A stretch of 64,000 nucleotides of DNA from an uncultured Candidatus Rokubacteria bacterium (lineage in GTDB: Bacteria; Methylomirabilota; Methylomirabilia; Rokubacteriales; CSP1-6): assembly GCA_963747235.1 (NCBI GenBank), contig CAVVEU010000015.1, positions 1 through 64,000 on the forward strand. Direction: 5' to 3'. The notes under the pieces are model-generated. The model was not told where the DNA came from. It saw only the letters and a list, made by a program, of their open reading frames with translations, and did no database searches. Made by a program: the position numbers and the translations under genes. Of this stretch, positions 3,900 through 39,256 are shown piece by piece; the first letter of the stretch is position 1; every line of letters starts with the position of its first letter.

Positions 3900-3900
3900 G

Positions 3901-12482: not shown

Positions 12483-12545
12483 TCGGAGGGGCTCGCCCCC
12501 TCCGAGCCTCCCCCAGAGCAGGTTGCGCGGGCGGAGCCCGCGCTC
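12483..12545. repeat. Composite palindromic intergenic element, family 2
   Basis: Two hairpins between convergent genes: tcggagggg/ctcgc/cccctccga and gcgcgggc/gga/gcccgcgc. Confidence 0.6.
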
Positions 12546-12556
12546 AGCGCTCCGCG

Positions 12557-15465: not shown

Positions 15466-15470
15466 TGGGC

Positions 15471-16106: not shown

Positions 16107-16150
16107 AGTAATCGCTTGGCGTGGCCCGGCGAAACCCCTACCCTGTCCGG

Positions 16151-17890: not shown

Positions 17891-18300
17891 TCGGTGTCGG
17901 GATCGGGGTCGCGGAACCGCCCGTCCACCGGCACCTGATAGGCGTTCGCCAGCGAGTTGGTCTCGCAGGCCATGCCGACCACCGCGAGCAGCTCGCCCCG
18001 CATGGCCTCGGTCATGCCGGCGCGGCGCGCGCCCGCGGTGTGCGAGGCGATGCAGTAGTCGCAGCCGTTGGCCGCGCTCACCGCGAGGTAGATCATCTCC
18101 TTGGTCAGCGGGTCGAGCGCGCCCGGCCCCATGATCTGCTTGATGCTCTCCCAGGTGCGGCGCAGGGTCGGCGGGTGGTTGGCGAGCGCCTTCCAGAAGT
18201 TGTTGATCCAGTCCGTCTTGCGCGTGGCCATGATGTCGTCGTAGACCTCGCGCACCTCGGGCGTCGCGAACTCGTACTCGATCAGCTCGGTGATGGGCAT
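17887..18300 (-). CDS. Carboxymuconolactone decarboxylase / AhpD-like protein
   Basis: KEMIYLAVSAANGCDYCIASH. Confidence 0.88.
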   Translation of the reverse strand: MPITELIEYEFATPEVREVYDDIMATRKTDWINNFWKALANHPPTLRRTWESIKQIMGPGALDPLTKEMIYLAVSAANGCDYCIASHTAGARRAGMTEAMRGELLAVVGMACETNSLANAYQVPVDGRFRDPDPDTD

Positions 18301-18319
18301 CGTCGCGCCTCCTTTCGCC

Positions 18320-19232
18320 CTACTCCCCGCGGAGAGTCGGGTCCAGCACGTCGCGGAGCCAGTCGCCGGTGCGGCTGACCACGATGGAGGTGACCATGAG
18401 CACGATCCCGGGGAACGTGGAGATCCACCAGGCCGAGTCGAGGTACTCGCGGCCCTCCTGCACCATGCCGCCCCAGGACGGCGTGGGCGGCTGGATGCCC
18501 AGGCCCAGGAAGGACAGCGTGGCCTCGAGCACGATGGCCCGGGCCAGCTCGAGCGTGGCGATGACCACGATGGACGAGAGCACGTTGGGCAGCACGTGGC
18601 GGAGCACGACGCGGGCGAGCGAGCCGCCGAGGGCGTGGATGGACTCCACGAACTCGCGCGAGCGCAGCACCAGCACCTGCGAGCGCAGGATGCGGGCGTA
18701 GGAGACCCAGCCCGGAGAGCCCGATCACCACCACCAGCGTCGGGAAGCTCGGGCCCAGCACCGCGATGATGCCGATGGCGAGCAGGATGAACGGGAAGGC
18801 GAGCTGGGCGTCCGCCACCGTCATGATGACGGCGTCCACGCGCCCGCTGCTGAAGCCGGCCGCCGAGCCCCGCCGCCGCCCCGAGCAGGCCGCCCACCAG
18901 CACCGCCGAGAAGCCGATCACCAGCGAGACGCGCGAGCCGTGGATCACGCGCGAGAGCACGTCGCGGCCCAGGTGATCGGTGCCGAGCAGGTGGGCGCGC
19001 CCGTCGGAGCCCTGCCACGTCGGCGCGGCGAGGCGGCCGCGCAGGCTCTGGCGGATCGGGTCCTGGGGCGCGATGCAGCGGGGCGGCCGCGGCCACCACC
19101 AGCAGCAGCCGCGACGAAGCCCACGCCCGCCACCACCAGCACGGGGAACCGGCGCCGGCGCCTGGGAATCCGGAGCGCGGGCGCGGCGAGGGCCGCGTCA
19201 GCCGGCGCGGATGCGGGGATCGAGGACGCCAT
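18320..19232 (-). CDS. ABC peptide permease (DppC-like); several indels, start uncertain
   Basis: LSRVIHGSRVSL, AFPFILLAI and EATLSFLGLGIQPPTPSWG fragments across frames. Confidence 0.8.
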
Positions 19233-20124
19233 AGATCAGGTCCACGAAGAAGTTGATCACCACGAACATGAGCGCGGCCAGGAAGACCGTGCACTGCACC
19301 ACCGCGTAGTCGCGGTTGTAGATGGACTGCACCGCGAGCCGGCCGATGCCGGGCCACGCGAAGACGGTCTCGGTGACGACCGCGCCGCCCAGCAGCGTGC
19401 CGAACTGCAGCCCGGTGATGGTCACGATCGGGATCGCCGCGTTCTTGAGCGTGTGCTTGGCCACCACCCACATCTCGGCCACGCCCTTGGCCCGCGCGGT
19501 GCGGATGTAGTCCGCGCCCAGCACCTCCAGCACCGCCGAGCGGGTGAGCCGGGCGATGGAGGCCATGGTGAAGGCGCCCAGCGTGAGCGCGGGCAGCACG
19601 AGGTTACGCCAGTCGCCGCGGCCCGAGGTCGGGAAGAGATCGGCCTTGAGCGACAGCAGCAGGATGAAGAGGATGCCGAGGAAGAACGTGGGCGCCGACT
19701 GGCCGACCAGGGCCAGGCCCATCGCCACGTGGTCCACCAGGGTGTTGCGCCGCATGGCGGAGAAGAGCCCGATGGGCACCGCCACCACCGCGGCGAGCAC
19801 GAAGGCGGTGAGCCCCAGCTCGAGCGTGGCCACCAGGTAGCCGCGCACCACGTTGAAGGCGGGCTCGCGGAAGTGGATCGAGCGGCCGAAGTCGCCGCGC
19901 GCGAGGTTCGACAGGAAGATCACGTACTGCACCGGGATCGGCTGGTCGAGGCCCAGCTCGCGGCGCACGCGCATGATCTCGCTGTGCGGCGCGTCGGGGG
20001 GCAGCAGCAGCGGCACCGGGTCGCCGGACAGGCGCATGACCACGAAGACCACGGTGGACACGAGCCAGAGCGCGATGAGGGCGCGGAAGAGGCGGTGACC
20101 GAGGAACGGAACGAATCCGCGCAT
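19198..20124 (-). CDS. ABC peptide permease (DppB-like)
   Basis: DYIRTARAKG, ETVFAWPGIG and DPRIR motifs. Confidence 0.92.
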   Translation of the reverse strand: MRGFVPFLGHRLFRALIALWLVSTVVFVVMRLSGDPVPLLLPPDAPHSEIMRVRRELGLDQPIPVQYVIFLSNLARGDFGRSIHFREPAFNVVRGYLVATLELGLTAFVLAAVVAVPIGLFSAMRRNTLVDHVAMGLALVGQSAPTFFLGILFILLLSLKADLFPTSGRGDWRNLVLPALTLGAFTMASIARLTRSAVLEVLGADYIRTARAKGVAEMWVVAKHTLKNAAIPIVTITGLQFGTLLGGAVVTETVFAWPGIGRLAVQSIYNRDYAVVQCTVFLAALMFVVINFFVDLIYGVLDPRIRAG

Positions 20125-20149
20125 GACTGGATGCTCTCCCCTCTTCCCA

Positions 20150-20183
20150 CCCTCTCCCCGATGGGGAGAGGGCAGGGTGAGGG
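20150..20183. repeat. REP-like palindrome, family 1 (reverse orientation)
   Basis: ccctctcccc/gat/ggggagaggg-cagggtgaggg; the reverse complement shares ccctcaccctgccctctcccc with the copy at 392. Confidence 0.8.
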
Positions 20184-20196
20184 AGGTGGCGACGAC

Positions 20197-21746
20197 TTAC
20201 GCGCGACGAAGCTTCAGGTTGAAGCGACGCACCTCGAACTGCTGGTTCGGGTTCGGCGTGAAGTCCACGTACTTCTGGAGCCCGTAGTCCTCGTACGGCT
20301 GGATGACCGGGCAGCCAGGGCAGGTGCTCCAGGAAGATCTTGGTCATCTCCTTGTAGGCCTCGCCCGCGGAACTTCTCGTCCACGCTGAAGCGGGCCGCG
20401 TTGCCCAGCTCGTCGAACTTGGCATCGCGCCAGTAGTCCTGCGGTCCGCCCGGGCCGAGCAGCCGCCACATCATGCCGTCCGGATCGCCCAGGGTGGACG
20501 TCGGGTCCGACCAGAACACGCCCTTGAAGCTCTTCTCGCGGTTCTTCTGGGCGCGCACCGAGTACTCGATGACCTCGACCTTGACGTTGACACCCACGTC
20601 CTTCCACATGGCCGCGATGGCTTCCGACATCGCCTTGTCCTGCGCCACGTAGGCCACCGTGGTCTCGATGAAGATCTCCTCGTTCTTGTAGCCCGCCTTC
20701 TTGAGCCGATCCTTGCGCCTCGGCCGGGTTGTAGGCCAGCGCCGGCAGGCTCGCGTCGAAGTGGTTGTCGCCCTTGGCGATGGGGCCGCTGGGCACGACG
20801 CCGCGCCCGCGCCACAGCTCCTTCACGATGGCCTCGCGATCGATGGCCAGCGACAGCGCCTGCTTCACGAGCGGATTGTCGAGCGGCGGCCGCTTGCTGT
20901 TCACCGCGAGCACGTAGAGGCCCGCGTAGAGCGCGCCCGCCACGCGCGTGGAGGCGTTACCGGCCACGCGCTCGCCCTGGTCGGGCGGGAGCTGGGTGAT
21001 GATGTCCACCTCGCCCTTGAGCAGCGCCGCGATGCGCGGCGCCGTCTCCGGGATCGGCCGCATGATCCAGCGGTCCACCTCGATCTTGCCGCCCCAGTAG
21101 TCCGGGTTGGCCTCGAGCACCGCCTTGTCGTCCTTCACCCAGGAGCCGAAGCGCACCGGGCCCGTGCCGACCGGCTTGGCATTGAAGGTGTCGTTGCCGA
21201 CCGCCTCGAGGTACTTCTTCGGCACGATCTGGCCGCCGTAGAACGCCAGGCGCGCGGGCAGCAGCGGGTCCGGCTTCTTGGTGGTGGATGACGAGCGTGA
21301 AGGGATCCGGCGCCTCGATCTGCTCGATCGTGGCGAGCGCGGTGGCCACCATGGTCTTGGCGGCCGGGTCGTAGGTGCGCTCGATGCTGAACTTGGCGTC
21401 GGCCGACGTGAAGGCGTCGCCGTTGTGGAACTTGACGCCCTGGCGCAGCTTGAAGCGCCACGTGGTCTGGCCCCTCGAGCTTCCACTCGGTCGCGAGCCC
21501 CGGGTGGAGCTTGCCGTCCGGATGGCGGCTCGTCAGGTTGTCGAAGACGTTGAAGGACACCCGGATGTCGTTCGACGAGGTGCTGAAGTGCGGGTCGAAC
21601 TTGGAGATGTCGCCCGCCTGGGCGGTCACCAGCTCCTTCTTCTGGGTGGTCTGGGCCAGGGCCGCGCCGGGCGCGGTCAGGGGCACCGTGGCGGCGGCGC
21701 CGAGGGCGGCCGCTCCCTTGAGCAGGTCACGTCGGGTCAATTCCAT
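20197..21746 (-). CDS. Tat-exported family-5 ABC substrate-binding protein; several indels
   Basis: MELTRRDLLK Tat signal; GLATEWK, GTGPV, NPDYWGG and LSLAIDR motifs. Confidence 0.88.
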
Positions 21747-21832
21747 AGTGGTGGCTCCTCCTCGGGTTCGCACTGCATCTGGGCTCCGTCTGGATACCGC
21801 GGCGGGCGACGGAGGCCGCTCGCGGTGCGTCA

Positions 21833-21861
21833 TTTATAGGGGTTTCCCCGCACCCTGTCAA
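21833..21861 (-). promoter_or_regulatory. sigma70-type promoter for the ABC operon
   Basis: Minus strand TTGACA-17 nt-TATAAA. Confidence 0.65.
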
Positions 21862-21911
21862 GCTGGGCCGCCGGTGGCGAACCTGTGCCAAACATGACAG
21901 AATCCAGCGCC

Positions 21912-23101
21912 ATGAGCCCCACAGCGGACATCGTCATCATCGGCGGCGGCGCGAACGGCACGAGCACCGCGTTTCACCTGGCCCGCATGGGCGCGAAGAA
22001 CGTCCGCCTGCTGGAGCGCCGCCACCTGGCGGCCGGCGCCACCGGCAAGTCCGGGCGCCCTCGTGCGCATGCACTACACCAACGAGCACGAGTCGCGCCT
22101 CGCCATCGAGAGCCTCAAGATCTTCCGCGAGTTCTCGGCGATCGTGGGCGGCGACTGCGGCTTCGAGACACCGGGCTTCCTGCAGATCGTGCCGCCGGGC
22201 TACGAGGCGGCCCTGCGCCGCAACCTGGCCCGTCAACAGCGACTCGGCGTAGACACTCGAGAGGTCTCGCGCGACGACGTCCGCGAGCTCTTCCCCGAGT
22301 GCCGCGTGGACGACATCGGCGCCGCCGCCTGGGAGCCGGGCTCCGGCTACGCCGACCCGAGCGCCACCGCGTTCGCCTTCGCCGCCGCCGCGCAGCGCCT
22401 GGGCGTCACCATCGAGAACGGCTGCCACGTCACCCGCATCCTGACCGAGGGCGGCCGCGTCACCGGCGTCGAGACCGCGGGCGGGCGCGTGGAGGCCCCG
22501 GTGGTCGTGCTGGTGCCGGGCGCGTGGGGCCAGCCGCTCCTCGATCCGCTCGGCCTCGACTATGGTCTCCAGCCCTTCCGCATCCAGGTCTCGCTCTTCC
22601 GCTGGCCGCCCACGCTCACCCGCAAGCACCCGGTGGTGATCGACGCGGGCCAGAAGGCGTGGATCCGCCCGGTGGACGGCAACCTGAGCCTGATCGGCGT
22701 CGAGCTGGGCGCGGCCTACGGCGGCGACCCGGACAAGCTGCACGAGGGCGTGGACGAGGGCTACGTGGCGCTCTGCCGCGAGCGGCTCGAGCCACCGCCT
22801 GCCGCTCTTCGCCGACTCCACGATGCGCGGCGGCTGGGCCGGCATGATCATGATGAGCCCCGACGGCCGCCCGATCATCGACCAGATCCCGTCGATCCCC
22901 GGCCTCTACGTGATGCTGGGCGACTCCGGCACGTCCTTCAAGACCTCCCCCGCCATCGGCAAGTGCCTCGCGGAGTGGATCCTCGAGGGCAAGCCGCGCA
23001 CCGTCGACCTCACCCCGTTCCGCGCCGCCCGCTTCGCCGAGGGCCGCCCCTGGGTGGACGACGACAACTACGGCCGCGAGCGCCTCACCATCTCGCGCTA
23101 G
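21912..23101 (+). CDS. FAD-dependent oxidoreductase (DAO / sarcosine oxidase beta family); indels near 22055 and 22790
   Basis: IIGGGANG, GATGKS, SPDGRPII and SGTSFKTSPAIG motifs. Confidence 0.85.
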
Positions 23102-24217
23102 CTCCGGAGCCCGACGACGTTGAACGCGGGAACGGGCCGGAGCAGCCCCTTGAGCGTGAGCGAGCCGATCTCCTCGAGGTCGGCCAGCATCCTCGACGGT
23201 CGAGGCGACCCGCTGGGCGACCAGGATCTGGCCGCCCTTGGCCTCGCCGCAGAGCCGCGCGGCCAGGTTCGTGACCGTCCCGATGGCGCCGTAGTCCCAG
23301 CGCCCCTCGAAGCCGATGGCGCCGATCGTGGCGTACCCCTGGGCGATCCCCAGCGCCGAAGGCGAGATCGTAGCCGCGCTTTCGCCAGCCGACGGCCAGA
23401 TCGTCCACCCGCGCCCGCATCGCCACCGCCATCCGGACCGCGCGCTCGCCCGGATTCGGAACCGGCACCGGGTCGTTGAAGAAGATCATCATCCCGTCGC
23501 CGGTGAACCGCTCGAGCGTCCCCTCGTGGTCCAGGATCAGCTCGCCCCATCTCGGCGTGGTACTCCCGGAGGACCCCCATCACCTCCTCGGGCTCGGCCG
23601 TCTCGGCGAAGGCGGTGAATCCGCGGAGGTCGAGGAACACGACCGTCACCTCGCGGCGATGCGACTTCAGCGGGTCCTCGGCCCCTCCCCCGACGATCAG
23701 CTCGGCGAGCTGGGGCGAGAAGAAGCGCTTGAGCCGCCCGAGCCGCTCGAGCTGCCCGACCTGCTCCTCGACGCGGCGCTCGAGGGTCTTGTTCCACTCG
23801 GCCCGCTCGGCCGCCAGGGCCTCCACGGTGTCGTGCAGATTCTTGATCCGCAGCATGGACTTCACCCGGGCGACCAGCGCGGGCTGGTCCACCGGCTTGG
23901 TCAGGTACTCGTCGCCGCCCGCCTCGAGGCCCGCCACGACGTCCGTGGGATCCGACTTCGCCGTGACCATGATGATCGGGATGAAGGGCAGCGACGCGTC
24001 GGCCCGCAGGCGCCGGCAGACCTCGATCCCGTCCATCTTCGGCATCATGACGTCGAGCAGGATCAGGTCCGGCTGCAGTCTCCTTGACCGCGGCGAGCGC
24101 CGCCTCGCCGTCGGTCGCGGTGACGATGTCGTACCCGTGGGCGGCCAGGCGCGCCTGGAGGATGTGCACGTTGGCCGGCGTGTCGTCGACGATCAGGATC
24201 CGCGGCGGCGTTCTCAC
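23098..24217 (-). CDS. Response-regulator receiver fused to a class III nucleotide cyclase; indels
   Basis: ILIVDD, MMPKMDG, YLTKP (receiver); FLDLRGFT, ERFTGDG, YGAIGTVTNLAARL and LKG (cyclase). Confidence 0.88.
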
Positions 24218-24234
24218 CTTGAGGTCTCCCGTCG

Positions 24235-24600
24235 CTACGCGAGGAACTCCCGGACCTTGGCCAGGAGCTCGCGCGGGACGAATGGCTTGGTGACATAGGC
24301 GTCGCAGCCCGCCTCGAACGCCTTCACGTCGTCGCCGCTGAGCGCGTAGGACGTGACCACGATGATCGGGATGTGCCGGAGCGCGGGATTGCCCTTGATC
24401 CGCCGTGTCGCCTCGTACCCGTCGAGCCCCGGGAGCTGGATGTCCATGAGGATCAGGTCCGGGCGCTCCTTCTCCGCCGTCGCCACCCCTTCCTCGCCGG
24501 TGACGGCCTCGATCATCTCGATGCCGGCGCTCGTCAGGAGGAGGCGCAGGATGCGCCGGTTCTCCTCGTGGTCCTCGATGACCAGGACACGCTTGCTCAT
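24235..24600 (-). CDS. Single-domain response regulator (DivK-like)
   Basis: MSKRVLVIEDH...DLILMDIQLPGLDG...YVTKPF. Confidence 0.9.
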   Translation of the reverse strand: MSKRVLVIEDHEENRRILRLLLTSAGIEMIEAVTGEEGVATAEKERPDLILMDIQLPGLDGYEATRRIKGNPALRHIPIIVVTSYALSGDDVKAFEAGCDAYVTKPFVPRELLAKVREFLA

Positions 24601-27600
24601 GCTCTCTCCGCCGGCCGCTCCACCCGCAGCGGCACCGTGAAATAGAACGTCGACCCCTTGCCGAGAACCGATTCCACCCACAGGCGCCCGCCGTGCAGCT
24701 CCACGATCCGCCGGGAGATCGAGAGCCCGAGGCCGCTGCCTCCCTTCGCGCGGGTGCTCGAGCTGTCGGCCTGCTGGAACTCCTCGAAGATCCTCTGCTG
24801 GTCGGCCTCGGAGATCCCGGGGCCGGTGTCCGACACCGAGACGAGGAAGGCGCCGTCGGTCGCCCGCGCCTCGATCGAGACCTCGCCCGCGTCGGTGAAC
24901 TTGATCGCGTTGCCGGCCAGGTTCAGCAGCACCTGGGTGAGCCGCCGCTCGTCGCCGCGGCCCGGGGGCAGATCGGCGGGGACGATGGCCTTGAAGGCGA
25001 GCTTCTTCCCGGCGGCGAGGGACTCCACCGCCGAGACCACCGCGTGCACGACCTCCCCCATGGCGTAGTCGCCGAGCGAGAGCGTGAGCTGGCCCGCCTC
25101 CATCCTGGAGAGATCGAGCACGTCGTTGATCAGGCTCGAGGAGGTGGTGCCCGTTGGTCTTGACCCGCTCGAGGGTCTCGCGGATCGGCGCGGGCACGTC
25201 GCCGAAGATGTCGTCCAGGATGAGGTCGGTATAGCCCAGCACCGCGTTCATCGGCGTGCGCAGCTCGTGGCTCATGTTGGCGAGGAACTGCGACTTGTGC
25301 TTGCTCGCGAGCTCGAGCTGCTGGCTCTTCTCCTGGATCTCCTGGAACAGCCGCGCGTTCTCGACGGCGACCGCCGCCTGCGCGGCGAAGGTATGCAGCA
25401 GGTCGACGGTGTGGGCCGGAATCGGCGCCCGGCTCACGCGGTTGTCCGCGCTGAGAACGCCCACGGTGCGCCCGCGGGCGATCATGGGGCTGACGAGAAA
25501 CGCCTTGAGCCGCAGGGCGGCAATCGCCGAGTAGGGAGGGCGCAGTCGATACTTCTCCGGCAGCGGGTGCGCCTCGCTGAAAAGCAGCGGCTCGCCGTCG
25601 CGGTAGACGGCCGCCAGCGCGCCCGCCTCGCCGAGGGGTATCGTCACGCCGACCAGATCTCGCCAGTCGCTCTCGCTGAGCCCGGCCCCCGCGCTGACCA
25701 TGAGCCCGTCGGCCGCCGGGCTGAGCGTCCAGATGTAGAGGTGGTCGAGGCCGACCACCTGGCGCGCGGCGTCGAGGACGCGCGTGAGCTGCTCCGCGAG
25801 GGACAGCGGCTCCTGGAGCGCCGTCGAGAGGCGGGAGAGCTGCTCCTGGTTGCGCGAGAGCTCCTCGAGGGCCCGGCTCTTCTCGTCGATCTCCCGGAAG
25901 AGCCGCGCATTCTGGATGGCGATGACCGACTGGGTCGCGAAGGTCTGGAGCAGGTCCACGATCGGCTTCGGGAACGCCCCCGCCACCTTCCGCCGGACCA
26001 CCAGCCCACCGATCACGCGGCTCCTCGCGCAGGAGCGGGACGGCGAGGAGCGCGCGGTACCCCGCCTCGAGCAGGAAGGGCAGCGCGTAGTGCGGCTCGC
26101 TGCTCGAGGTCGGGGATCTGGAACGGCGGCGCGCGTCGCCGCCGCCTGCCCGACCGCGCTCTCGCCGACGCCGGATGTGCGACTGGCGGAGGGCCTCGAT
26201 CAGCTCCTCGGCCATGCCGTAGTTCGCCCGGGGCACGAACACCTGCGTCGGCCTCGTCGAACTCGTAGATGGTGCCGGCGTCGGTGCTGCGAGAGCTCGA
26301 CCGCGTGCGAGACGATGCTGGTGAGGACGGACTGGATGTCCAGGCTCCCGCTGACCGCCTGCCCCACCTCGCCGAGCGCCCGGAGCTCGTCGACCGAGCG
26401 GGTCAGCTCCTGCGTCCGCTCCTGCAGCTCCTTGAACAGCCGCACGTTCTCGATGGCGATGACCGCCTGGTCGGCGAAGGTCTGGAGCAGGGCGATCTGC
26501 TTGTCGGAGAATGGGTTGACTTCGGTGCGGCGGAGCTGGATCACGCCGATCGCCGCGCCCTCCCGCATCAGCGGAACGCTCAGGGTCGTCCGGTGCCCCA
26601 GTTCCCTGGCGCGCGCGCTGACCTTCTGGAAAGTCGTGCTGCCTCGGCCTGAAGGTCGGCCACATGGATGGCCCGCCGCTCGAGTAGCGCGCGTCCCGCG
26701 ACCGTTCCGCGCACCAGCGGCACAGAGACGCCCTCCGGGTTGGAGAATCGGCCCGTGGTGGGCACCCATCCGCAGGCTGTCCCCTTCGGGGAGAAAGATG
26801 ACCGCGTCATAGGCCCCGCACAATCGCGTGGCGCTCCTGACCAGCGCGTCCAGCACGGGCTCGATGTCGGTCGGCGAGCTGCTGATCACCCGCAGGATCT
26901 CGCTGGTCGCCGTCTGCTGCTCGAGCGCCTCGGTCAGGTCGCGGTTGGCGTCGCCCAGCTCTCGCGTGCGTGCCTCGACCTTCTGCTCCAGGCCCTCGTA
27001 GGACTCCTTGAGGCTGGCCGTCATGCGGTTGAACGACCCCGCGAGGGCCTCGATCTCGTCGCCGGTGTGCAGCTCGATCGGCTGGTCGAGCCTCCCGGCG
27101 CCGATTCGCGCCGCGCCTTCCTGGAGCACCCGGATCGGCGCGACCATTCGCCGGGCGAGGAAGAGGCTCGCCAGGATCGAGAGCCCGAGACCCAGCACGA
27201 AGATGACGGCGCTCCGGATGATCGGCGCCCGGAGGGGAGCGTAGGCGTCCGCGGCCGGCCGTTCGACGAAGACGAGCCACCCGAGGGGAGCGATGGCCGC
27301 GTGCGCCGCGAGGACCCGCCCGCCGCCGAGGCCGTCGGCGACCACGGCGACCGGGGCGTCTGCCGTGGGGCCCGAGCGTTCGGCCCGCGCTGACTTCACC
27401 TGGACGAGTCCCGAGACGTCCCGCTTCTCTCGCAGCAGCCGAGCTGTCCGGATGGGCGACGAGCTGGTTCCGGGAATCCACCACGTAGGCGTAGCCGCCC
27501 GGGCCGACCTCGATCTGGGAGACGATCTTCAGGACGGCGCCGAGGCTGACCTCCGCCGTGGTCACCTCGACGGCGTACTTGCCGACGCGGCACGGCCAGC

Positions 27601-28139
27601 GTCACGTACGGCTCCGAGTCGTTCTTGAGGTAGACGGGACTCCAGTACGTCTTGCCCGCTCGCGCCTCGAGGAACTTGGGCGCCTTGGAGAAGTCTTCCT
27701 GGCTGCCGACGACATCCGGCTCCAGACGAGAGACGCGAAGCTGCTCCTTGCCGGCCAGGTCGAGGTGGCTCAGCTCGCTGACGGCGGGGACATTGCGAAG
27801 GACCCGCAGGAAATCGAGCTCGCGCTGCTCCGCCAGCGCCGCCCCCAGACCCTGGCGAAATCCGAGCTTCCCCTGCCCCACCTGGCTCGCGTCGGGATCG
27901 TCGGACGCGGTCCGGGTCGTCTCGCGCACCTGCTGCTCGATCTCCTTCAGAAACTGCTCGATCCCGACCGCCGCCGCCACCGCCTTCGCGCGCTCGACCC
28001 GGACGATCGCGACCTGGGTCTCCCGGTAGGAGAAGTAGAGCTCGACCAGGCTCGACGCCATCAGCACGCCGCCGACCAGCACGAGCAGGACGACGACGTA
28101 CTTGCGGAAGAGCCGCCCGCGCGTCCCGAGGATCTTCAT
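24597..28139 (-). CDS. Sensor histidine kinase TM-Cache-TM-HAMP-GAFx3-HisKA-HATPase; many indels
   Basis: Pieces across ORFs: YWSPVY and GYAYVVD (Cache), DEIEALAGSFNRM (HAMP), three (T)FAxQ..IAIEN-type GAF ends, SHELRTP, NAIKFT, GSGLGL. Confidence 0.88.
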
Positions 28140-29112
28140 CGCCGGAAGGCGTCGGCGCGGAGCAGGATCTTTCGCGGCACGGTGAGGCCGAGCAGCGTCC
28201 GCGGTCTTGAGGTTCACGGCGAGATCGATCTTCTCGGCGCCTTCGACGGGCAGGTCCTGAGGCCGGGCGCCCCGCCGGATCTTGGCGACCAGCGCGGCGG
28301 CCTGGACCCCCTGGGCGTAGTAGTCGGGACCGTACGACATGAGACCACCATAGCCGACCCAGAGCGCCGTCCCGAAGACGGCCGGGACGCGCAGGGCAAG
28401 CGACTGCTCGATGATCGCGATGGCGAGATCCGGGTTCGAGCCCTCCGGCGCGAGCACGGCGTCGTCGCGCCGGACCTCGCGGAGCACCCGCCTCAGCTCG
28501 TTCGCGTCGAGCACACCCTTCGGCACGACCTCGAGCTTCATGCGCTGCGCCACCTCGAGCGCCTTCTGGATCATGGGCATGGTGCTCAGGTCGACGCCGT
28601 AGTAGATGAGCCAGACCCGGCGGACGGCCGGAGCGAGCGTCTTGAGAACTTCCAGGCGCTTCGCCACGAGCTCGGTCTGGAGGCTCGAGACACCCGTCAC
28701 GTTGCCGCCGGGCTGGGCGAGCGTGCCCGACGATGCCGGCGCCCACCGGGTCGCCCACCAGGGTGAACACGATCGGGCACGCTCTTCGTCGCGTCCTTCG
28801 CGGCCTGGGTGGCCGCTTCCTGGCTCGTGAAGATCAGGTCGACACCCGCCTGACGAGGGCGACGGCGGCCGCGGGCATCGCGTCCAGCTTCCCTTCGGTG
28901 AAGCGAATGTCGAACGTCACGTCGCGCCCGTCCTCGACGCCGAGCTCCTTGAGCCCGGCCTTGAGTCCCTCGACGGTCGGATGGCTCGCCGCCCACGCCG
29001 CGTTGAGGACACCGATCCGGAACGGGCGCGGAGCCTGCTGCGCCTCGGCCGATTGAGCGGGCAGCCAAAGAAGAATCGCCACCGCGATCGAGAAGGACCG
29101 AGGCATCGGCAT
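28136..29112 (-). CDS. ABC-type substrate-binding protein (ABC_sub_bind-like); indels
   Basis: FRIGVL, DPVGAGIV, KRLEVLK, GGLMSYGPD, GARPQDLPVE and VNLKTA motifs; stop overlaps the kinase ATG. Confidence 0.82.
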
Positions 29113-29114
29113 GG

Positions 29115-30215
29115 CTACCCGGACACGAACTGATGGTAGGCGCCCTCGGCCACGTGGTCCCAGGGGCCCACCAGCGCCTGGAACTTCGTGAAGGACGCGT
29201 GCACCTTCTTCGCCATCGGGGTCTTCTCGGATTCTTCCCTGACAACCTCGGCCGACAGCTTCTTGAGATCGCGCAGCACCGGCACGGGGAGCTGGAGCAC
29301 CTCGACCTTGCCCTTGAACTCGGTCCTGAGCCGCTCGAGCGCGATGGCGTTCTTCAGGTGGAAGTCCGTGAGGCCATAGACTTGCACCGCGGCGGTGGCA
29401 TGATCGAGCGTCCGCTGCAGATCGATCGGGAGCGCCTCGTACGCCTTCTTGTTGAAGCCGAACATCGTCGCGTTGCCGGGTTCATGCCAGCCCGGGTAGT
29501 AGTAGTAGCGGGCGGTCCTGTGGAGACCCAGCTTCATGTCGTCGTACGGGCCGATCCATTCGGCGGCGTCGATCACGCCCCGCTCGAGCGCGGAGTAGAT
29601 GTCGGCGGCCGGGAGTGAGCACCACCGTGCCGCCCGCCTTCGCGTAGACCTCTACCGCCCAGGCCCGTGCCGATGCGCATCTTGAGTCCCTTGTAGTCGG
29701 CGATCGTGTTGATCTTCTTCCTGAACCATCCGGCCATCTGTGGAGCCGCCGCCGTGGCGGGGCGCGGCACGAGGTCGAAGGCGGCGTACGTCTCCTCCCA
29801 GAGCTCTGAGCCCGTCGCCCTGGTAGTACCAGGCCGCCATGCCCTCGGGATTCATGCCGAACGGGACGGTCGTGAACCACTCGAACGCGGGCTCCTTCGC
29901 GGTCCAGTAGTATGCGGAGGCCATGAACGCCTCGATGGTGCCCTTCGAGGCGGCCTCGAAGCACTCGAGCGGCGGCATGATCTGGCCGCCCGGAAAGACC
30001 TCGATCCGGAACCGCCCGCCGCTCATCTCCTCGACGACCTTCGCCAGCCGCTGGGCCACGCCCTGCAAGTGGTCGAGCGCCGGGGTCCAGGCCGTGGACA
30101 TGCGCCACTGGACCTTCGGCTGCGCGATGACGTTGGGGGCATCGACGATGGCGCCAGCGGCCGCGGCCGCCATCACACCGCCCGCCTTCACGATGAACCT
30201 GCGTCGCTCGGTCAT
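29115..30215 (-). CDS. TRAP substrate-binding protein DctP (TakP-like), copy A; indels
   Basis: Tat signal TERRRFI; WRMSTAW, GLKMRI, DAAEWIGPYDD and YYYPGWHEP motifs. Confidence 0.88.
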
Positions 30216-30226
30216 CACGCCCATCC

Positions 30227-31329
30227 TCACCCCGCCACGAACTGATGGTAGGCGCCTTCGGCGACGTGATCCCAGCGGCCCACCAGCGCCTGGAACTTCG
30301 TGAACGACGCGTGCACCTTCCGGGCCATGGGGGTCTTCTCGGACTCTTCCCTGACGACCTCGGCCGCCAGCTTCTTGAGATCGCGCAGCACCGGCACCGG
30401 GAGCTGGATCAGTTCGACCTTGTCCTTGAACTCGGTCTTGAGTCGTCCGAGCGCGATCGCGTTCTTCGCGTGGAAGTCGGCGAGCCCGTAGACCTGCACT
30501 GCCGCGACGGCATGATCGAGCGTCCGCTGCAGATCGACCGGGAGCGCCTCGTAGGCCTTCTTGTTGAAGCTGAACTCCGTCATGCTGCCGGGCTCATGCC
30601 AGCCCGGGTAGTAGTAGTAACGCGCGGTCTTGATGGAGGCCCAACTTCATGTCGTCGTGCGGCCCGACCCATTCGGCGGCGTCGATCACGCCCCGCTCGA
30701 AGGCACCGTAGATCTCGGAGCCCGGAATCAGTACCGCCGTGCCGCCCGCTCTCGCGTAGACCTTGCCGCCGAGAGGCACGCCGATGCGCATCTTGAGTCC
30801 CTTGTAGTCGCCGATCGTGGTGATCTTCTTTCGGAACCATCCGGCCATCTGGGGGCCGTACGTGGTGCCTGGGCGCGGCACGAGATTGAAGGGGGCGTAC
30901 ACCTCTTCCCAGAGCTTGAGCCCGTCGCCCTGGTGGTACCAGGCAGCCATGCCCTCGGGGTTCATGCCGAACGGGATGGTCGTGAACCACTCGAGCGCCG
31001 GCTCCTTGGCGGTCCAGTAGGACGCCGAGGCCATGAACGCCTCGATGGTGCCCTTCGAGGCCGCGTCGAAGCACTCGAGCGGCGGCATGATCTGGCCGCC
31101 GGGGAAGACCTCGATCCGGAACCGTCCGCCGCTCATCTCTTCGACGACCTTCGCCAACCGCTGGGCCGCGCCGTTGCAGGTGATCGAGCACCGGGGTCCA
31201 GGCCGTCGACATGCGCCACTGGACCTTCGGCTGGGCGATGACGTTGGGGGCGTCGATGATGGCCGTCGCGGCGGCGGCCGCCATCACCCCGCCTGCCGTC
31301 GCGATGAACCTGCGTCGTTCGGTCGTCAC
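30227..31329 (-). CDS. TRAP substrate-binding protein DctP (TakP-like), copy B; indels
   Basis: Same motifs as copy A. Confidence 0.88.
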
Positions 31330-31339
31330 GTTGCCCTCC

Positions 31340-32435
31340 TCATCCTGCTACGAGCTGATGATAGGCACCTTCGGCGACGTGGTCCCACGGGCCCACCAAC
31401 GCCTGGAACTTCGTGAAGGACGCGTGCACCTTCCTGGCCATGGGAGTCTTCTCGGATTCTTCTCTGACGACCTCGGCCGCCAGCTTCTTGAGATCGCGCA
31501 GCACCGGCGCCGGGAGCTGGATCAGCTCGACCTTGCCCTTGAACTCGGTCTTGAGTCGTCCGAGCGCGATCGCGTTCTTGGCGTGGAAGTCCATGAGGCC
31601 ATAGACGTGCACCGCGGCGGCGGCATGGTCGAGCGTCCGCTGCAGATCGATCGGGAGCGCCTCGTACGCTTTCTTGTTGAAGCCGAACTCGTCCGTGGTA
31701 CCGGGCTCGTGCCAGCCCGGGTAGTAGTAGTACCGCGCGGTCTTGTGGAGGCCCAGGTTCATGTCGTCATGCGGCCCGATCCATTCAGCGGCGTCGACGA
31801 CGCCCCGCTCGAGCGCCGGATAGATCTCGGCGGCGGGGATGAGAGCCGCCGTGCCGCCCGCCCGGGCGATGACCTTGCCGCCGAGGTTCACGATGCGCAT
31901 CTTGAGTCCCTGGTAGTCGCCGATCGTATTGATCTTCTTCCGGAACCATCCGCCCATCTGCGGGGCGTTCGAGAGGGCGGGGCGCGGCACCAGGTTGAAG
32001 GGGGCGTAGGCCTCCTCCCAGAGCTTGAGCCCGTCACCCTGGTAGAAGCCAAGCCATCATGCCCTCGGGGTTCATCCCGAACGGGATGGTCGCGAACCAC
32101 TCGACCGCGGGCTCCCTCGCCGCCCAGTAGGACGAGACGGCCATGAAGGCCTCGACCGTGCCCTTGGAGGTGGCGTCGAAGCAGCCCAACGCCGGCATGA
32201 TCTGGTCGCCCGCGAAGACCTCGATCCGGAACCGCCCGCCGCTCATCTCGTCGACGATCTTCGCGAAGCGCTGGGCGGAGCCCTGGAGGACGTCGAGCGC
32301 CGGGGTCCAGGCGGTGGACATCCGCCACTGGACCTTCGGCTGCGCGATGACGTTGGGGGCATCGACGATGGCACCTGCAGTTGCGGCCGCCATCATCCCG
32401 CCTGCCGTCACAATGAACCTGCGTCGTTCCGTCAT
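31340..32435 (-). CDS. TRAP substrate-binding protein DctP (TakP-like), copy C; indel near 32045
   Basis: Same motifs as copy A. Confidence 0.88.
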
Positions 32436-32448
32436 CGCGCTGCCCTCC

Positions 32449-32589
32449 TCACCCGGCGACGAACTGGTGGTAGGCACCTTCGGCCACGCGATCCCAGAGC
32501 CCTGCCGACGCGTGCTCCTGGGCGATCACGTCGGGAGCGTCAACGATGGCGGCGGCGGGCGCGGCCGGGCGCCGGGCTTGGCCCCTCAC
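32449..32589 (-). pseudogene. Internally deleted relic of a fourth DctP copy (46-codon open frame)
   Basis: Manual translation VRGQARRPAAPAAAIVDAPDVIAQEHASAGLWDRVAEGAYHQFVAG*, which joins the DctP N-terminus to the DctP C-terminus. Confidence 0.75.
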
Positions 32590-32716
32590 TTGTAGCGAGC
32601 GGTCCGCAGAAGTATCACCTTCACGGCACCTCGCCGGCGCGGTCAGGTTCGTGACCCGATCAGGGATGGTCGGTGTCGGTGTGGCCGGGCGAGTATATGC
32701 GGCACGGCCGGACGCG

Positions 32717-35059
32717 TCAATCTACCGCAGCCGGAACAACCGCATCGGCGTCTCCACGTTCTTCAGCTCGCGCACGCCCAGGTCCTCCACGAGCCAGGTC
32801 GTCCCCCAGCCGCGTCCGCGTCGCCTCGCTGATCACGATCTCGCCGTCGCCCGCCTGCGCGGCCAGGCGCGCCGCGATGTTGGTGGTCATGCCGGAGGCG
32901 GTGTAGGTCCAGCGCGTGCCCGCGCTGCCCTCGATCTTGGTCGCGCCCAGCAGCGCGGGGCCGGTGTTGACGCCCACGTGCATGGCCACCGGCTCGAAGC
33001 GCGCGGCCAGCTCGGCGCCGATCTCGGCGGCGCGGCGGTGGATGGCGCGCGCCGCGTCCACCGCCGCGCGGGCGTGCGGGCCCTCGTGGAAGATCACCAT
33101 GAGCCCGTCGCCCGCGGTCTCGTTCACGTCGCCGCCGTGCTTGACGATCTCGTCGAGGAAGGCGCCGAAGTAGCGCTCCACGAGGCCGGCCAGGTCGTCG
33201 GGCTGAAGGCGCGACGACAGGCGCGTGTAGCCGCTGATGTCGGCGAAGAGCACGCTGACGTCGGTCTCCTTCTTCTCGAGCGACGGCGCCTCCGGCGATT
33301 CCTCGATGAGCTGGCGCACCCGGCGCGGCACGAACTTGGCGAGGCTGCCGCGGATGAGCAGGCTGCGCTCGAGCTGCTGGGCGTAGTCCAGCACCTGGCG
33401 GTGCGCCTCCGCGTTGGCCACCGCCACCGCGGCCTGGTCGGCCAGCGCCTCCAGCATCTCCAGATCCTCGCCGGTATAGGGCGCCTCCGACCGCTTGCCG
33501 CCCAGCACCAGCAGCGCGCGCAGGCCCCCCTGGAAGCGCAGCGGCACCACCACCTCCGCGCCCAGCGCCTGGTAGGCGGCCAGGGCGGCCCCGCGGTCGC
33601 TGCCGAAGCTCGGATCGGCGGCGAGCTGGTAGCGGGAGAGCGCGCCCGGCGCGACCTCCAGGGCGGCCAGGATGTCGTGCGGAAACCCGTCCACGAGCAG
33701 GCGCGTGGATCGCACGTGCATGGCCGACTCGATGGTGGTGGTGAGGCGCCGGGTGATCTCGTCCAGATCGAGCAGGCTCGACATGGAGCGGGCCAGCGTG
33801 CGCATCGCCAGCGCGTAGTCGTGGCGCTCGCGGAAGAACGTGCGGTCCACCGCCCGCCGCACCCGCTCGCGCAGCGGGTTGAAGAGCAGCACCACCACGA
33901 ACATGAAGCCGGCCGAGAACCAGGGCGAGCGCGTGAGGTCGGTCTGGGCCAGCAGCGCGTTGGTCCCGGCCAGGAGCAGCGCGTAGGCGCCGGTGATGAG
34001 GCCGGCCAGCCCGGTGTAGATCACCGAGCGGCGGATCACCACGGTGGCGTCGAAGAGACGGTAGCGCACGGTGGCGTAGCCGATGGCCGCCGGGTAGAGC
34101 AGCATGAGGGCCGAGCCCACCTGCGGATCGAACGGGCTCTGGTAGAGCTGCTGCAGCGGCCAGAGCATGAGGCAGAGCCAGGCGCCGAGCCCCATCCCGA
34201 TGCCCAGCAGCAGCACGGTGGTCTGCTGGTTGACGAGCGGCGAGGCGGCGCGCCGGCGCGTGTCGAGCAGCGCGCCGATCTTGATCGGGAAGGACAGCGT
34301 GCTGAGCACCGAGAGCACGGCGGCGGAGGCCGGATAGACCCAGCCGTTCACCAGGAGCGCCGGCGCGAAAGCCCGGATCAGGATGAACGAGAGCGCGCTC
34401 GCCAGCCCGAGCGCCACCGCCACGCGGTAGAGGCGCGGGATCACGCGGTGGCGCTCGAGCCACCGCGCGCGGTCGGCATTGGCCGGGTACGTGAGGAAGA
34501 ACACCCAGCCGTGGATGGAGAGCAGCGGGGCCAGGAGCCCGACCAGGGCCGCCGCGTACGGGCGCGCGCCCAGCACCGCCTCGGGCACCGCGACGTTGGA
34601 GACGGCCCAGAGGCACATATAGAGGAGGAAGCGGCGGTTGGGCGCCGCGGCGGGGTTCTGCACGAAGACCGCCGCGCCCACGATCAGCATGAGGGCCGAG
34701 ACGAGGAAGTAGACCCCGAAGTGGTCCACCAGCCGGCTCCAGGTCAAGGTGCGCGGCGCCAGCTCCACGGAGAGCCGGCGCCCGGCGCGCTCCACCTCGT
34801 AGCGGATGGGCCCGGCGGCGGCGCGCACGCGCGCGGCCAGGGTGAGCGGCGAGTCGCCCTCCACCGCGACCAGCCGATCGCCCGCGCGCAGGCCCGCCGC
34901 GCGCGCGGCGGACTCGACGGGGACGACGTAGTAGTCGGGCGTGGCGAAGAAGCCCGGATAGGGGCGGCCGGCCTCCAGGGCGAGGCCGCCCAGCAGCCCC
35001 AGCAGCACCGCGAGGCTCACCGCGACGAGGAGCGTGGATCGCAGGTCCCACCGCGCCAT
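32717..35059 (-). CDS. Membrane nucleotide cyclase: PDZ-like, multi-TM, GAF, class III cyclase; indel near 32790
   Basis: SAARAAGLRAGDRLVAVEG (PDZ); LGGKRSEAPYTGEDL (GAF); LFADISGYT, GDG and NIAARL (cyclase). Confidence 0.85.
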   Translation of the reverse strand: MARWDLRSTLLVAVSLAVLLGLLGGLALEAGRPYPGFFATPDYYVVPVESAARAAGLRAGDRLVAVEGDSPLTLAARVRAAAGPIRYEVERAGRRLSVELAPRTLTWSRLVDHFGVYFLVSALMLIVGAAVFVQNPAAAPNRRFLLYMCLWAVSNVAVPEAVLGARPYAAALVGLLAPLLSIHGWVFFLTYPANADRARWLERHRVIPRLYRVAVALGLASALSFILIRAFAPALLVNGWVYPASAAVLSVLSTLSFPIKIGALLDTRRRAASPLVNQQTTVLLLGIGMGLGAWLCLMLWPLQQLYQSPFDPQVGSALMLLYPAAIGYATVRYRLFDATVVIRRSVIYTGLAGLITGAYALLLAGTNALLAQTDLTRSPWFSAGFMFVVVLLFNPLRERVRRAVDRTFFRERHDYALAMRTLARSMSSLLDLDEITRRLTTTIESAMHVRSTRLLVDGFPHDILAALEVAPGALSRYQLAADPSFGSDRGAALAAYQALGAEVVVPLRFQGGLRALLVLGGKRSEAPYTGEDLEMLEALADQAAVAVANAEAHRQVLDYAQQLERSLLIRGSLAKFVPRRVRQLIEESPEAPSLEKKETDVSVLFADISGYTRLSSRLQPDDLAGLVERYFGAFLDEIVKHGGDVNETAGDGLMVIFHEGPHARAAVDAARAIHRRAAEIGAELAARFEPVAMHVGVNTGPALLGATKIEGSAGTRWTYTASGMTTNIAARLAAQAGDGEIVISEATRTRLGDDLARGGPGRARAEERGDADAVVPAAVD

Positions 35060-35083
35060 GCGAGTACTCTATACTGCGAATCC

Positions 35084-39119: not shown

Positions 39120-39256
39120 TACGAGTTCACAGAGAGCAGCTCAGAACGACGCCCTCGCGGCGCCCCTACCCACCTTCCCTTTTCCTGTCTGAAGTAGGCC
39201 GCATCCATGGATCGAGCAAGGTCGTGCTTTGGCCAGTTTTCTTTTAGGAGGAGCTC

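Follow-up and report, generated by a model that had tools for sequence, protein, structure and literature searches.

The window, i.e. the whole 64-kb stretch of DNA that was analysed, contains a minus-strand run of genes at 23098-32589 in which Pfam searches with the reading-frame pieces identified three DctP-family binding proteins, a binding protein of family PF04392, a histidine kinase, a receiver, and a receiver-cyclase (Table 1). This is the gene order that the original prediction had claimed for the locus, including the Cache-HAMP-3×GAF architecture of the kinase, and a three-frame read confirmed that the genes overlap or nearly abut: the stop codon of the PF04392 gene overlaps the kinase start in an ATGA at 28139-28136, the kinase stop and the receiver start do the same at 24600-24597, and the spacing at the remaining junctions is 2-11 nt. 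Only one promoter-like site was found between positions 22800 and 33000, with 10 of 12 consensus matches (0.6 such sites are expected from shuffled sequence). Translation and reading of the sequence also revealed a residual fourth DctP copy, which is similar to the N- and C-terminal ends of the three complete ones.

Table 1. Features of the gene cluster, in coordinates of the window.
Feature	Position	Strand	Basis or remark
Sigma-70-like promoter, predicted	32692..32720	-	TTGACG-17-TATACT, just 5' of the operon; consensus match only
Remnant of a fourth DctP copy	32449..32562	-	Signal-peptide end fused to the last ~15 residues and stop
DctP-C, TakP-like TRAP-family binding protein, RRRF Tat motif	31340..32435	-	Pfam DctP, both pieces
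DctP-B, GTG start	30227..31329	-	Pfam DctP
DctP-A	29115..30215	-	Pfam DctP
PF04392 (ABC_sub_bind) periplasmic binding protein, Sec-type signal peptide	28136..29112	-	Pfam
Sensor histidine kinase: TM, dCache, TM, HAMP, GAF ×3, HisKA, HATPase_c	24597..28139	-	Pfam
Single-domain receiver	24235..24600	-	Pfam Response_reg, 95 bits
Receiver and class III nucleotidyl cyclase	23098..24238	-	Pfam Response_reg and Guanylate_cyc

Retrieval via the kinase yielded 53 loci with the cluster, mostly from Methylomirabilota/Rokubacteria MAGs and some from Burkholderiales; DctPs of the array clade that sit beside transporters elsewhere fall outside this census. The putative sensing operon is a conserved feature of uncultured soil bacteria, kept in Methylomirabilota (Rokubacteria) and present in some Burkholderiales. 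The PF04392 gene, an orphan binding-protein gene, adjoins the kinase with its periplasmic sensor domain in 50 of the 51 loci that have at least 1.1 kb of upstream sequence, and of the 44 loci in which 2.3 kb or more is available, 37 have one or more DctP genes upstream. The number of DctP copies was variable: of the 29 loci whose upstream sequence spans 9 kb or more, four had none, six had one, eight had two, seven had three, three had four, and one had five, and six DctP tiles were present in L053. This variable number of 1-6 copies, with turnover, agrees with the predicted expandable panel. Locus L010 lacks the array over 5 kb upstream although its sensor is 87% identical, six loci more distant than L010 likewise have no array, L040 carries a Peripla_BP_6 gene in its place, and in four loci (L004, L006, L017, and L022) a PIN/Phd pair sits between the array and the PF04392 gene. 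The DctP array is an accessory, dispensable part of the cluster. The binding-protein/kinase trio was also found in Burkholderiales/Casimicrobiaceae MAGs, with a sensor identity of 55-65% and differing flanks and outputs, and the linkage of binding proteins and kinase is accordingly kept across two phyla. Two apparent fusions were set aside: P0024, which joins PF04392 and dCache in one protein, lies on a contig equal in length to that of L002, a locus with frame breaks, while the ORF L042:9023-13273 owes its length to an N-terminus extended too far in the kinase frame and has no PF04392 domain by Pfam and different frames by tblastn.

The cluster had further been suspected to be an acquired island on account of its codon usage. 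Its GC3 of ~0.88 is indeed lower than the 0.93-0.97 of intact flanking genes, but acquisition itself is poorly supported, as the clusters of relatives have a similar GC3 of 0.79-0.91, which on average lies only 0.022 below that of their flanks, and Pfam searches of the large ORFs found no mobility genes beside the cluster within the 64-kb window.

The absence of dctQ/dctM, permease, and ATPase genes, another element of the original prediction, held up. Neither within the cluster nor next to it did Pfam searches of the remaining large ORFs of the window find DctQ, DctM, a BPD_transp_2 permease, or a cognate ATPase, and tblastn of a real DctQ/DctM pair, that of locus L031 described below, gave no match in the whole 64 kb. 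The nearest ABC components belong to a peptide-type system (SBP_bac_5 and BPD_transp_1) at 19.2-21.8 kb, past a convergent DAO gene. Pfam annotation of 296 flanking ORFs placed DctQ/DctM in one of the 53 loci only, L031, where a dctPQM set lies 1.5 kb upstream of the array and brings its own DctP, which does not match the array DctPs. In the tblastn search, the L031 pair had no further match among the 53 loci either. A cognate ABC permease or ATPase for the PF04392 protein was found neither in the window nor consistently among the loci.

The DctP assignment was supported by full-length Pfam matches of 140-151 bits in intact relatives, and by matches to the pieces in the window, while the array DctPs stayed under the NCBIfam DctP cut-offs (46 versus 175 bits, and 34-38 versus 50). 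Their best solved relative was TakP (2hzk, E 4.6e-76, full-length), and the match includes the C-terminal stretch, which in TakP forms the helix that makes the helix-swapped dimer. The TakP ligand residues, taken from the available text of PMC1839085, were mapped via a HMMER alignment to 2hzk onto 66 array copies. R177, the TRAP carboxylate-binding arginine, and E214 were kept in all 66 copies, Q156 and E240 in 63 each, Trp215 in 57, and Tyr100 in 56. In contrast, column entropy at pocket positions V97, Y99, T153, V245, I47, and T213 ranked in the 91st-99th percentile, and the three copies of the window differ at these variable positions. Judging by sequence, the array DctPs are TakP-like proteins with a fixed carboxylate-cation anchor and a hypervariable side-chain pocket. 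A fixed array position for each specificity was considered and rejected, with 27 label changes on the DctP tree versus 27.8 in shuffles; since positions are not conserved and copies do not cluster by genome on the same tree, the data point to birth-and-death turnover only, and not to a fixed slot per specificity. The RRRF twin-arginine motif, a trait of the TakP subfamily, is confined to the DctPs, so that the notion of Tat-exported receptors applies to the DctPs and fails for the PF04392 protein with its ordinary signal peptide.

An uptake function for the DctPs is the alternative that survives best. Here, the PF04392 protein would be the sole co-receptor, and the DctPs would serve a TRAP pair encoded elsewhere and be merely co-transcribed, an arrangement that could raise sensing and scavenging of related acids together. 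Several observations fit: TakP, the closest characterised relative, is a transport protein working with TakQM according to the available text of PMC1839085, the ligand anchor for transport-type binding is intact, the array is missing in L010 and set apart by a toxin-antitoxin pair in four loci, and L031 has its transporter genes close to the array. A TakQM-like pair could also lie elsewhere in these genomes. I nevertheless consider this explanation unlikely, as DctQ/DctM are out of reach in 52 of 53 loci and in the window, the one neighbouring transporter comes with an unrelated DctP, and the linkage of the DctP and kinase families persists across phyla while the flanks change. It would also be unusual for TRAP systems that several SBPs with divergent pockets share one distant transporter.

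Attention then turns to the kinase and the binding protein encoded next to it. The sensor domain matched dCache_1 with 41-47 bits in close relatives (cut-off 45) and with 50-87 bits in distant ones, and the match was weak in the window. An AF2 model of a relative's sensor (pLDDT 82.4) consisted of a long helix (7-79) and two alpha/beta modules, and a Foldseek search with this model retrieved the dCache domains of PctA/B/C, Tlp3, and kinase sensors at a probability of 1.00; the modelled sensor of this relative is shown to have a dCache fold. The PF04392 protein matched the Pfam ABC_sub_bind profile with 154-162 bits and has solved relatives in 3lkv, 6hni, and 3lft, while it did not reach the TrpX equivalog score (127 bits versus a cut-off of 390).

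The complex modelling that had been suggested was carried out for the pair of sensor and PF04392 protein from L011, an intact relative. Kinase residues 37-300 and residues 6-304 of the PF04392 protein gave a predicted complex with a score of 0.67, compared to 0.00 for the best of three controls. This mark is attained by 116 of 157 solved complexes and by 2 of 215 mismatched pairs; as the present pair was modelled from alignments built for this analysis, these counts apply only roughly, and the score may in part reflect a likeness to solved complexes of binding proteins with double-PAS sensors, e.g. LuxP-LuxQ. Runs agreed in at least 96% of contacts with a partner pLDDT of at least 86, and the columns of the predicted interface were more conserved than the remainder in both partners (SBP entropy 0.70 vs 0.98, p 0.02; sensor 1.35 vs 1.66, p 0.05). 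Docking of the PF04392 protein on the membrane-distal part of the kinase dCache, where it would act as a co-receptor like LuxP on LuxQ, is thus a prediction with in silico support. The original idea of a panel that feeds one kinase is to be modified: the near-constant partner with predicted docking is the PF04392 protein, and not the DctPs, which are accessory and absent from L010.

According to a second alternative, a small molecule is sensed by the dCache domain itself, which is never touched by the binding proteins; these would buffer or scavenge ligand near the sensor or be neighbours for historical reasons. As the dCache domains with the closest solved folds bind amino acids or small ligands directly and without a helper, the sensor may need no binding protein; the dCache-HAMP module is moreover shared by 571 representative clusters (E <= 1e-30) that have many different outputs. 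Direct sensing is nevertheless improbable given the near-constant adjacency of the PF04392 gene, its stop overlapping the kinase start, and the predicted complex with its conserved interface, and the SBP-dependent receptors tabulated in PMC8050422 have dCache-like sensors as well.

As the sequence stands, the lone receiver is the only intact gene of the cluster, and all others (8 of the 9 counted) are spread across two or three frames, owing to 24 one-base insertions and a single one-base deletion. Insertions are located at ~32048 in DctP-C, at ~31173 and ~30633 in DctP-B, at ~29806, ~29652, and ~29614 in DctP-A, and at ~24077, ~23548, ~23353, and ~23189 in the receiver-cyclase gene. The PF04392 gene has insertions at ~28777, ~28728, and ~28193 and the deletion at ~28852, and reads through to 324 aa when corrected, while the kinase gene has 10 insertions and gives 1177 codons without an internal stop once these are skipped. 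The earlier advice to polish indels thus turned out to concern a severe problem, and all genes are full length after skipping the lesions. The breaks could in principle mark a decaying, non-functional pseudogene cluster in the source genome, but this is very improbable, since all 25 lesions are single-base, no nonsense codons or larger indels were found in the cluster genes, dN/dS downstream of the breaks relative to the intact relative L007 was 0.125, 0.187, and 0.197 over 633, 121, and 370 codons, frame breaks also affect unrelated neighbours at 16-23 kb whereas genes in other parts of the window are intact at lengths of up to 1897 aa, and L050, the closest relative by synteny, is just as heavily broken, with 149 gap openings. 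Single-base lesions, the lack of nonsense codons, and the low dN/dS argue for sequence error and not for decay; the operon is intact in the organism, and the ~25 single-base errors that make the frame breaks look like sequencing errors. The practical lesson of this window is that dense one-base insertions can give a working operon the look of a pseudogene graveyard.

On the output side, the lone receiver is 93% identical to the receivers of relatives. In agreement with the claim of a receiver-cyclase output, the kinase is followed by a class III cyclase with a linked receiver in 25 of the 35 loci whose sequence extends far enough, and 10 have no cyclase. The closest solved match of the cyclase domain was CyaB (3r5g, E 2.4e-35). 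Based on positions assigned from aligned CyaB, CyaC, and Cya2 sequences, its key residues read D-R-D-G-N-R, with both metal Asp, Asn, and Arg present, and the D-x-D-x-N-R pattern is found in the window-type cyclase and in 11 loci. Class III cyclases are specified by Lys/Asp(Thr) for ATP and by Glu/Cys(Gly) for GTP. The substrate-specifying positions are here non-canonical Arg and Gly (Gln and Thr in a second cyclase type of relatives), and the nucleotide product is consequently not assignable.

Taken together, the cluster is most likely a multi-receptor sensing device. I assign a probability of roughly 0.55 to the reading that it is a conserved and intact periplasmic sensing operon in which the PF04392 co-receptor and the DctPs signal via the kinase to the receiver and the receiver-cyclase. 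Translational coupling links the PF04392 gene to the kinase gene, and the PF04392 protein would act as co-receptor on the dCache. Each Tat-exported, TakP-like DctP would have its own ligand, a cation-coupled 2-oxo or 2-hydroxy acid that differs in its side chain, and would signal its occupancy to the same kinase, possibly by contact with the dCache domain or with the PF04392 protein. Following domain logic, the signal would reach the HisKA/HATPase core by way of HAMP and the three GAF domains. From the core, phosphoryl groups would be handed on to the lone receiver, which would serve as sink or connector, as well as to the receiver-cyclase, where phosphorylation would turn on the class III cyclase. 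If this reading holds, transporter-less TRAP-type proteins, usually annotated as transport subunits, would need re-annotation as sensors throughout an uncultured phylum. With 2-oxo acids, the array would give Rokubacteria, of whose physiology very little is known, a defined input to a cyclic-nucleotide pathway, and it represents a natural experiment in which ligand specificity diversifies around a fixed anchor.

A more far-reaching version can be put forward tentatively: orphan, tandem TakP-like paralogues, with their fixed anchor and a rapidly evolving side-chain pocket, together with the PF04392-bound dCache kinase may form a combinatorial, periplasmic multi-ligand sensor that converts the mix of 2-oxo/2-hydroxy acids outside the cell, and perhaps aromatic amino acids, into a cyclic-nucleotide or partner-switching signal. 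If true, the DctP family and PF04392, neither of which appears in the signalling-SBP table of the 2021 review PMC8050422, would each gain their first role in signalling, and the array would be a bacterial case of receptor diversification through tandem gene birth and death.

Literature searches for this cluster found no description of it, and only a handful of binding-protein-dependent kinases are known. LuxP/LuxQ, TorT/TorS, and ChvE/VirA likewise place an orphan binding-protein gene beside a membrane kinase gene without a transporter, and the periplasmic sensor of LuxQ is of the double-PAS/dCache kind. The cluster differs from these in that the binding protein is of family PF04392 and accompanied by a second family in 1-6 copies, and in that the output is a receiver-cyclase and not a DNA-binding regulator or Hpt relay. 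TakP-TakQM of Rhodobacter sphaeroides (2hzk/2hzl) shares the twin-arginine leader and the Arg177/Gln156/Glu214/Glu240 sodium-pyruvate site, whereas the array has no Q or M subunit and consists of tandem, kinase-linked paralogues with a hypervariable side-chain pocket. BctC/BctE of Bordetella pertussis is likewise a case of kinase signalling that involves the binding protein of a secondary transporter, here of the TTT type, as described in the available text of PMC5812351 and PMC8050422; BctC, however, is of the TctC family and also serves its own BctBA transporter, whereas the array proteins are DctPs without a transporter. NspS/MbaA and ScrB/ScrC, listed in Table 1 of PMC8050422, control a nucleotide second messenger through a binding protein on a dCache-like sensor, but these receptors carry GGDEF/EAL domains themselves and make or break c-di-GMP, in contrast to the phosphorelay to a separate response-regulator cyclase predicted here; direct dCache-HAMP-cyclase fusions do occur among distant relatives (P0190 and P0197). 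Finally, CyaB of Pseudomonas aeruginosa (3r5g) shares the metal Asp pair, Asn, and Arg with the cyclase of the cluster, in which the adenine-specifying Lys is replaced by Arg and the Asp/Thr by Gly, and the regulatory module is a receiver domain.

The gene content of 23098-32589 was read on the minus strand with Pfam and by three-frame translation, and both bore out the order of the original prediction, in which three DctP genes are followed, with overlaps, by a second binding protein, a kinase, a receiver and a receiver-cyclase. The three-frame reading placed ATGA overlaps between the gene for the second binding protein (PF04392) and the kinase, and between the kinase and the receiver, while the other cluster genes are spaced by 2-11 nt. 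Tat export, which had been claimed for all the receptors, held for the DctPs with their RRRF twin-arginine leaders but not for the PF04392 protein, which has an ordinary signal peptide.

Coordinates of the cluster, its split neighbours and the one-base lesions
Feature	Position (nt)	Strand	Basis or remark
Sigma-70-like site	32720-32692	-	Single such site within 22.8-33 kb, just upstream of operon
Fourth-DctP scar	32449-32562	-	Signal-peptide end fused to last ~15 codons and stop; between sigma-70-like site and first DctP
Three DctP-family genes	31340-32435, 30227-31329, 29115-30215	-	Pfam; transcription order
PF04392 'ABC_sub_bind' binding protein	28136-29112	-	Pfam
Histidine kinase	24597-28139	-	Pfam: dCache_1 (weak match), HAMP, GAF x3, HisKA, HATPase_c
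Lone receiver	24235-24600	-	Pfam
Receiver fused to class III cyclase domain	23098-24238	-	Pfam
Split DAO oxidoreductase	21885-23101		Three pieces
Split SBP_bac_5 gene	20217-21833		Three pieces
Split EamA transporter	16112-18375
Insertions	23100-26520		11
Insertions	26621 and 26638		2
Insertions and the deletion	26800-29120		5 insertions, 1 deletion
Insertions in three DctPs			1, 2 and 3

All cluster genes except the lone receiver are broken across two or three frames, and the indels that had been suspected were located by DNA alignment with intact relatives as 24 insertions and one deletion, each of a single base and specific to the window, the majority of the 25 lying outside homopolymer runs. 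Skipping these lesions gave full-length frames without internal stops, with lengths of 358+, 367 and 371 residues for the DctPs, 324 for the PF04392 protein, 1177 codons for the kinase, 121 for the receiver and 378 for the receiver-cyclase. Compared with the related locus L007, dN/dS was 0.125 for the C-terminal part of the kinase, 0.187 for the receiver and 0.197 for the receiver-cyclase. The breaks are concentrated in 16000-32600, and genes outside this stretch are intact, up to 1897 residues. Gene decay could also account for broken frames, but because the unrelated EamA, SBP_bac_5 and DAO neighbours at 16-23 kb are split as well and long genes elsewhere are intact, I conclude that 16000-32600 is a locally unpolished assembly stretch and not a decaying one. 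The cluster is taken, with a probability of about 0.9, to be a real, conserved signalling operon that is disrupted here by sequence error alone. Elsewhere in the window, a 642-aa ORF (2103-4028, minus strand) with OppB-like and OppC-like BPD_transp_1 permease domains may be a natural fusion or may consist of two genes merged by another indel.

A search with the N-terminal 184 residues of the kinase gave 829 database matches, the best 120 of which are 87-96% identical and fall into length classes of ~995, 1178, 1356, 1530 and 1710 residues that reflect differing GAF numbers; the few named members among these 120 belong to Rokubacteria/Methylomirabilota. These length classes lie ~178 residues apart while the periplasmic domain stays 87-96% identical, and one to about eight GAF-sized tiles separate HAMP from HisKA in these 120 and in the kinases of the related loci. 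A scan of species-representative genomes yielded 53 such loci, most of them in Methylomirabilota MAGs, some in Burkholderiales or Casimicrobiaceae, one alphaproteobacterial, and a few in MAGs with other phylum labels; the nearest are only ~88% identical to the window in DNA. Searching them with pieces of the window (tblastn) recovered a recurring order of DctP copies, PF04392 protein and kinase, so the predicted synteny is kept: of the 51 loci whose upstream sequence spans 1.1 kb or more, 50 have the PF04392 gene directly next to the kinase (all but L044), and of the 44 that reach 2.3 kb or more, 37 carry one or more DctPs upstream (those without are L010, L040, L044, L047, L048, L049 and L052). 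Where 9 kb or more of upstream sequence was present (29 loci), none, one, two, three, four and five DctP copies were counted in 4, 6, 8, 7, 3 and 1 loci, and L053 has six DctP tiles by tblastn. In L004, L006, L017 and L022 a PIN-domain toxin, inserted at the same junction, separates the DctP array from the PF04392 gene, and in L022 a Phd/YefM antitoxin adjoins it. In L040 a Peripla_BP_6 binding protein (L040:7538-8845) stands in place of the DctPs. Extra PF04392 paralogues, 27-34% identical to that of the window, occur near the kinase in L046, L047, L048, L052 and L031 (L031:11281-11805), so that in distant loci the presence of several binding proteins near this sensor family extends beyond DctPs.

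The reported lack of dctQM, permease and ATPase genes was upheld by Pfam analysis of the window ORFs, the remaining large ones included, and by tblastn with DctQ and DctM of L031. Out of 495 ORFs called in the loci, 296 outside the cluster were scanned with Pfam, and DctQ/DctM turned up in the flanks of one locus of 53, L031, in a sample that was located through the kinase and leaves DctP-clade members beside transporters elsewhere outside it. There they accompany a DctP of their own, with an AbiEii gene between them and the array, and in tblastn the three L031 proteins matched nothing but themselves in the window and the 53 loci. The PF04392 gene has no BPD_transp_2 permease or matching ATPase beside it among these 296 ORFs; the flanks hold unrelated metabolic genes that vary between loci. 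The window's own flanking genes are shared with L050 only, and with a differing neighbourhood in almost every genome the cluster behaves as a movable module. An acquired island had been proposed from codon usage, and in the window (~71% G+C) the GC3 of the cluster (~0.88) is indeed below that of the intact flanking genes (0.93-0.97), but a recent acquisition is not borne out, as in 23 relatives (cluster GC3 0.79-0.91, lower than the flanks in 17) the mean difference is just -0.022.

The PF04392 protein is related to the solved structures of its family, which contain aromatic amino acids according to the accessible text of PMC10443332, and is not a TrpX equivalog by NCBIfam. The periplasmic part of the kinase folds as a dCache domain (AF2 pLDDT 82.4; Foldseek probability 1.00 against PctA/B/C, Tlp3 and kinase sensor domains). 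The dCache-HAMP module is common, with 571 representative clusters at E <= 1e-30, and its partners in the 53 representatives scanned are mostly GAF-kinases, besides a direct cyclase, a PP2C phosphatase and a LuxR-type domain. The proposed modelling of binding protein with sensor was carried out on the related locus L011, pairing its kinase (residues 37-300, 104-row alignment) with its PF04392 protein (residues 6-304, 36 rows), and gave a score of 0.67 against 0.00 for the best of three controls. Among solved complexes 116 of 157 attain this mark, and among mismatched pairs 2 of 215, a calibration that is roughly valid here as custom alignments were used. Three runs agreed on at least 96% of contacts, with a partner pLDDT of at least 86. 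Solved complexes of binding proteins with double-PAS domains exist, such as LuxP-LuxQ, and the pass may be partly owed to likeness with these. The model places the contact surface at the membrane-distal part of the sensor, and the columns involved are more conserved than the remainder (p = 0.02 for the binding protein, p = 0.05 for the sensor). Predicted complex and interface conservation together support binding of the PF04392 protein to the sensor, and a role as co-receptor on the dCache domain seems probable.

DctPs of intact relatives match Pfam DctP along their whole length but fall far under the NCBIfam DctP cut-offs. Among solved structures they are closest to TakP of Rhodobacter sphaeroides (2hzk, E 4.6e-76), with other keto-acid/lactate binders next. 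PMC1839085 describes TakP as a binding protein for 2-oxo acids in which Arg177, Tyr100, Gln156, Glu214, Trp215 and Glu240 hold sodium-pyruvate, with a side-chain pocket lined by Y99, F40, V97, V245, A212, A213, P243, T153 and I47. Across the 66 array copies mapped, which include the window's three, the anchor is nearly invariant (Arg and Glu214 in 66/66, Gln156 and Glu240 in 63/66), while the pocket positions V97, Y99, T153, V245, I47 and T213 rank at the 91st-99th percentile of column entropy, and four of them differ between the three copies of the window. The tree of DctP copies showed no clustering by genome or by array position, which points to an array probably shaped by repeated gain and loss, and the scar of a fourth DctP attests directly to the loss of a copy from this array. 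Whether these TakP-like paralogues serve as sensory inputs and not as uptake proteins appears evenly balanced: a sensory role is suggested because they come without a transporter, keep their linkage across phyla, and combine a fixed anchor with a variable pocket, and it is counted against because the array is dispensable (L010), can be replaced by a Peripla_BP_6 gene (L040), and in some loci has a toxin-antitoxin pair between it and the PF04392 gene.

The output side was surveyed in the 35 loci with at least 2.5 kb past the kinase ATPase domain. A receiver-linked class III cyclase is present in 25; the lone receiver followed by a receiver-cyclase, as in the window, accounts for 10, with three more similar, and in 12 the cyclase comes after a hybrid kinase that has an Hpt domain as well as two receivers. 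Instead of the cyclase, two loci from Burkholderiales carry receiver-PP2C, anti-sigma-type kinase and STAS proteins, six loci are without a nearby receiver, and two are of other kinds. In L040, L041 and L042, partner-switching proteins (receiver-PP2C, anti-sigma-type kinase, STAS) are coupled to this same sensor module. In the cyclase of the window the two metal-binding Asp residues are present, as are the Asn and Arg of the transition state. The positions that specify the nucleotide are occupied by Arg and Gly; in the alignment they read Lys and Thr in the adenylyl cyclases CyaB and CyaC, and Glu and Gly in the guanylyl cyclase Cya2. With this Arg/Gly pair the putative cyclase may make cAMP, cGMP or another product. 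Directly upstream of the cluster lies an intact 783-aa PDZ-GAF-class III cyclase (32720-35068, minus strand) with the pattern D-E-D-T-N-R, i.e., Glu where adenylyl cyclases carry Lys; it is placed outside the conserved unit because this neighbour was found in L050 only.

Two further features of the window were recorded. A 1897-aa class II (B12-dependent) ribonucleotide reductase at 39248-44941 (plus strand) is interrupted by intein splicing and LAGLIDADG domains. The stretch 12000-16000 (76-78% G+C) holds a 1039-aa TPR-repeat ORF (12560-15676, minus strand) and an MGDG-synthase-like ORF, and gene calling there is ambiguous, with several long overlapping ORFs.

Full-text searches found no description of the cluster, and the portions covered of PMC8050422 and PMC5812351 name neither DctP-family nor PF04392 proteins among signalling partners. 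Kinases that depend on binding proteins have precedents, and so do receiver-cyclases; what is new is which two families of binding proteins take part, that there is a tandem variable array, and that a cyclase is coupled to the system.
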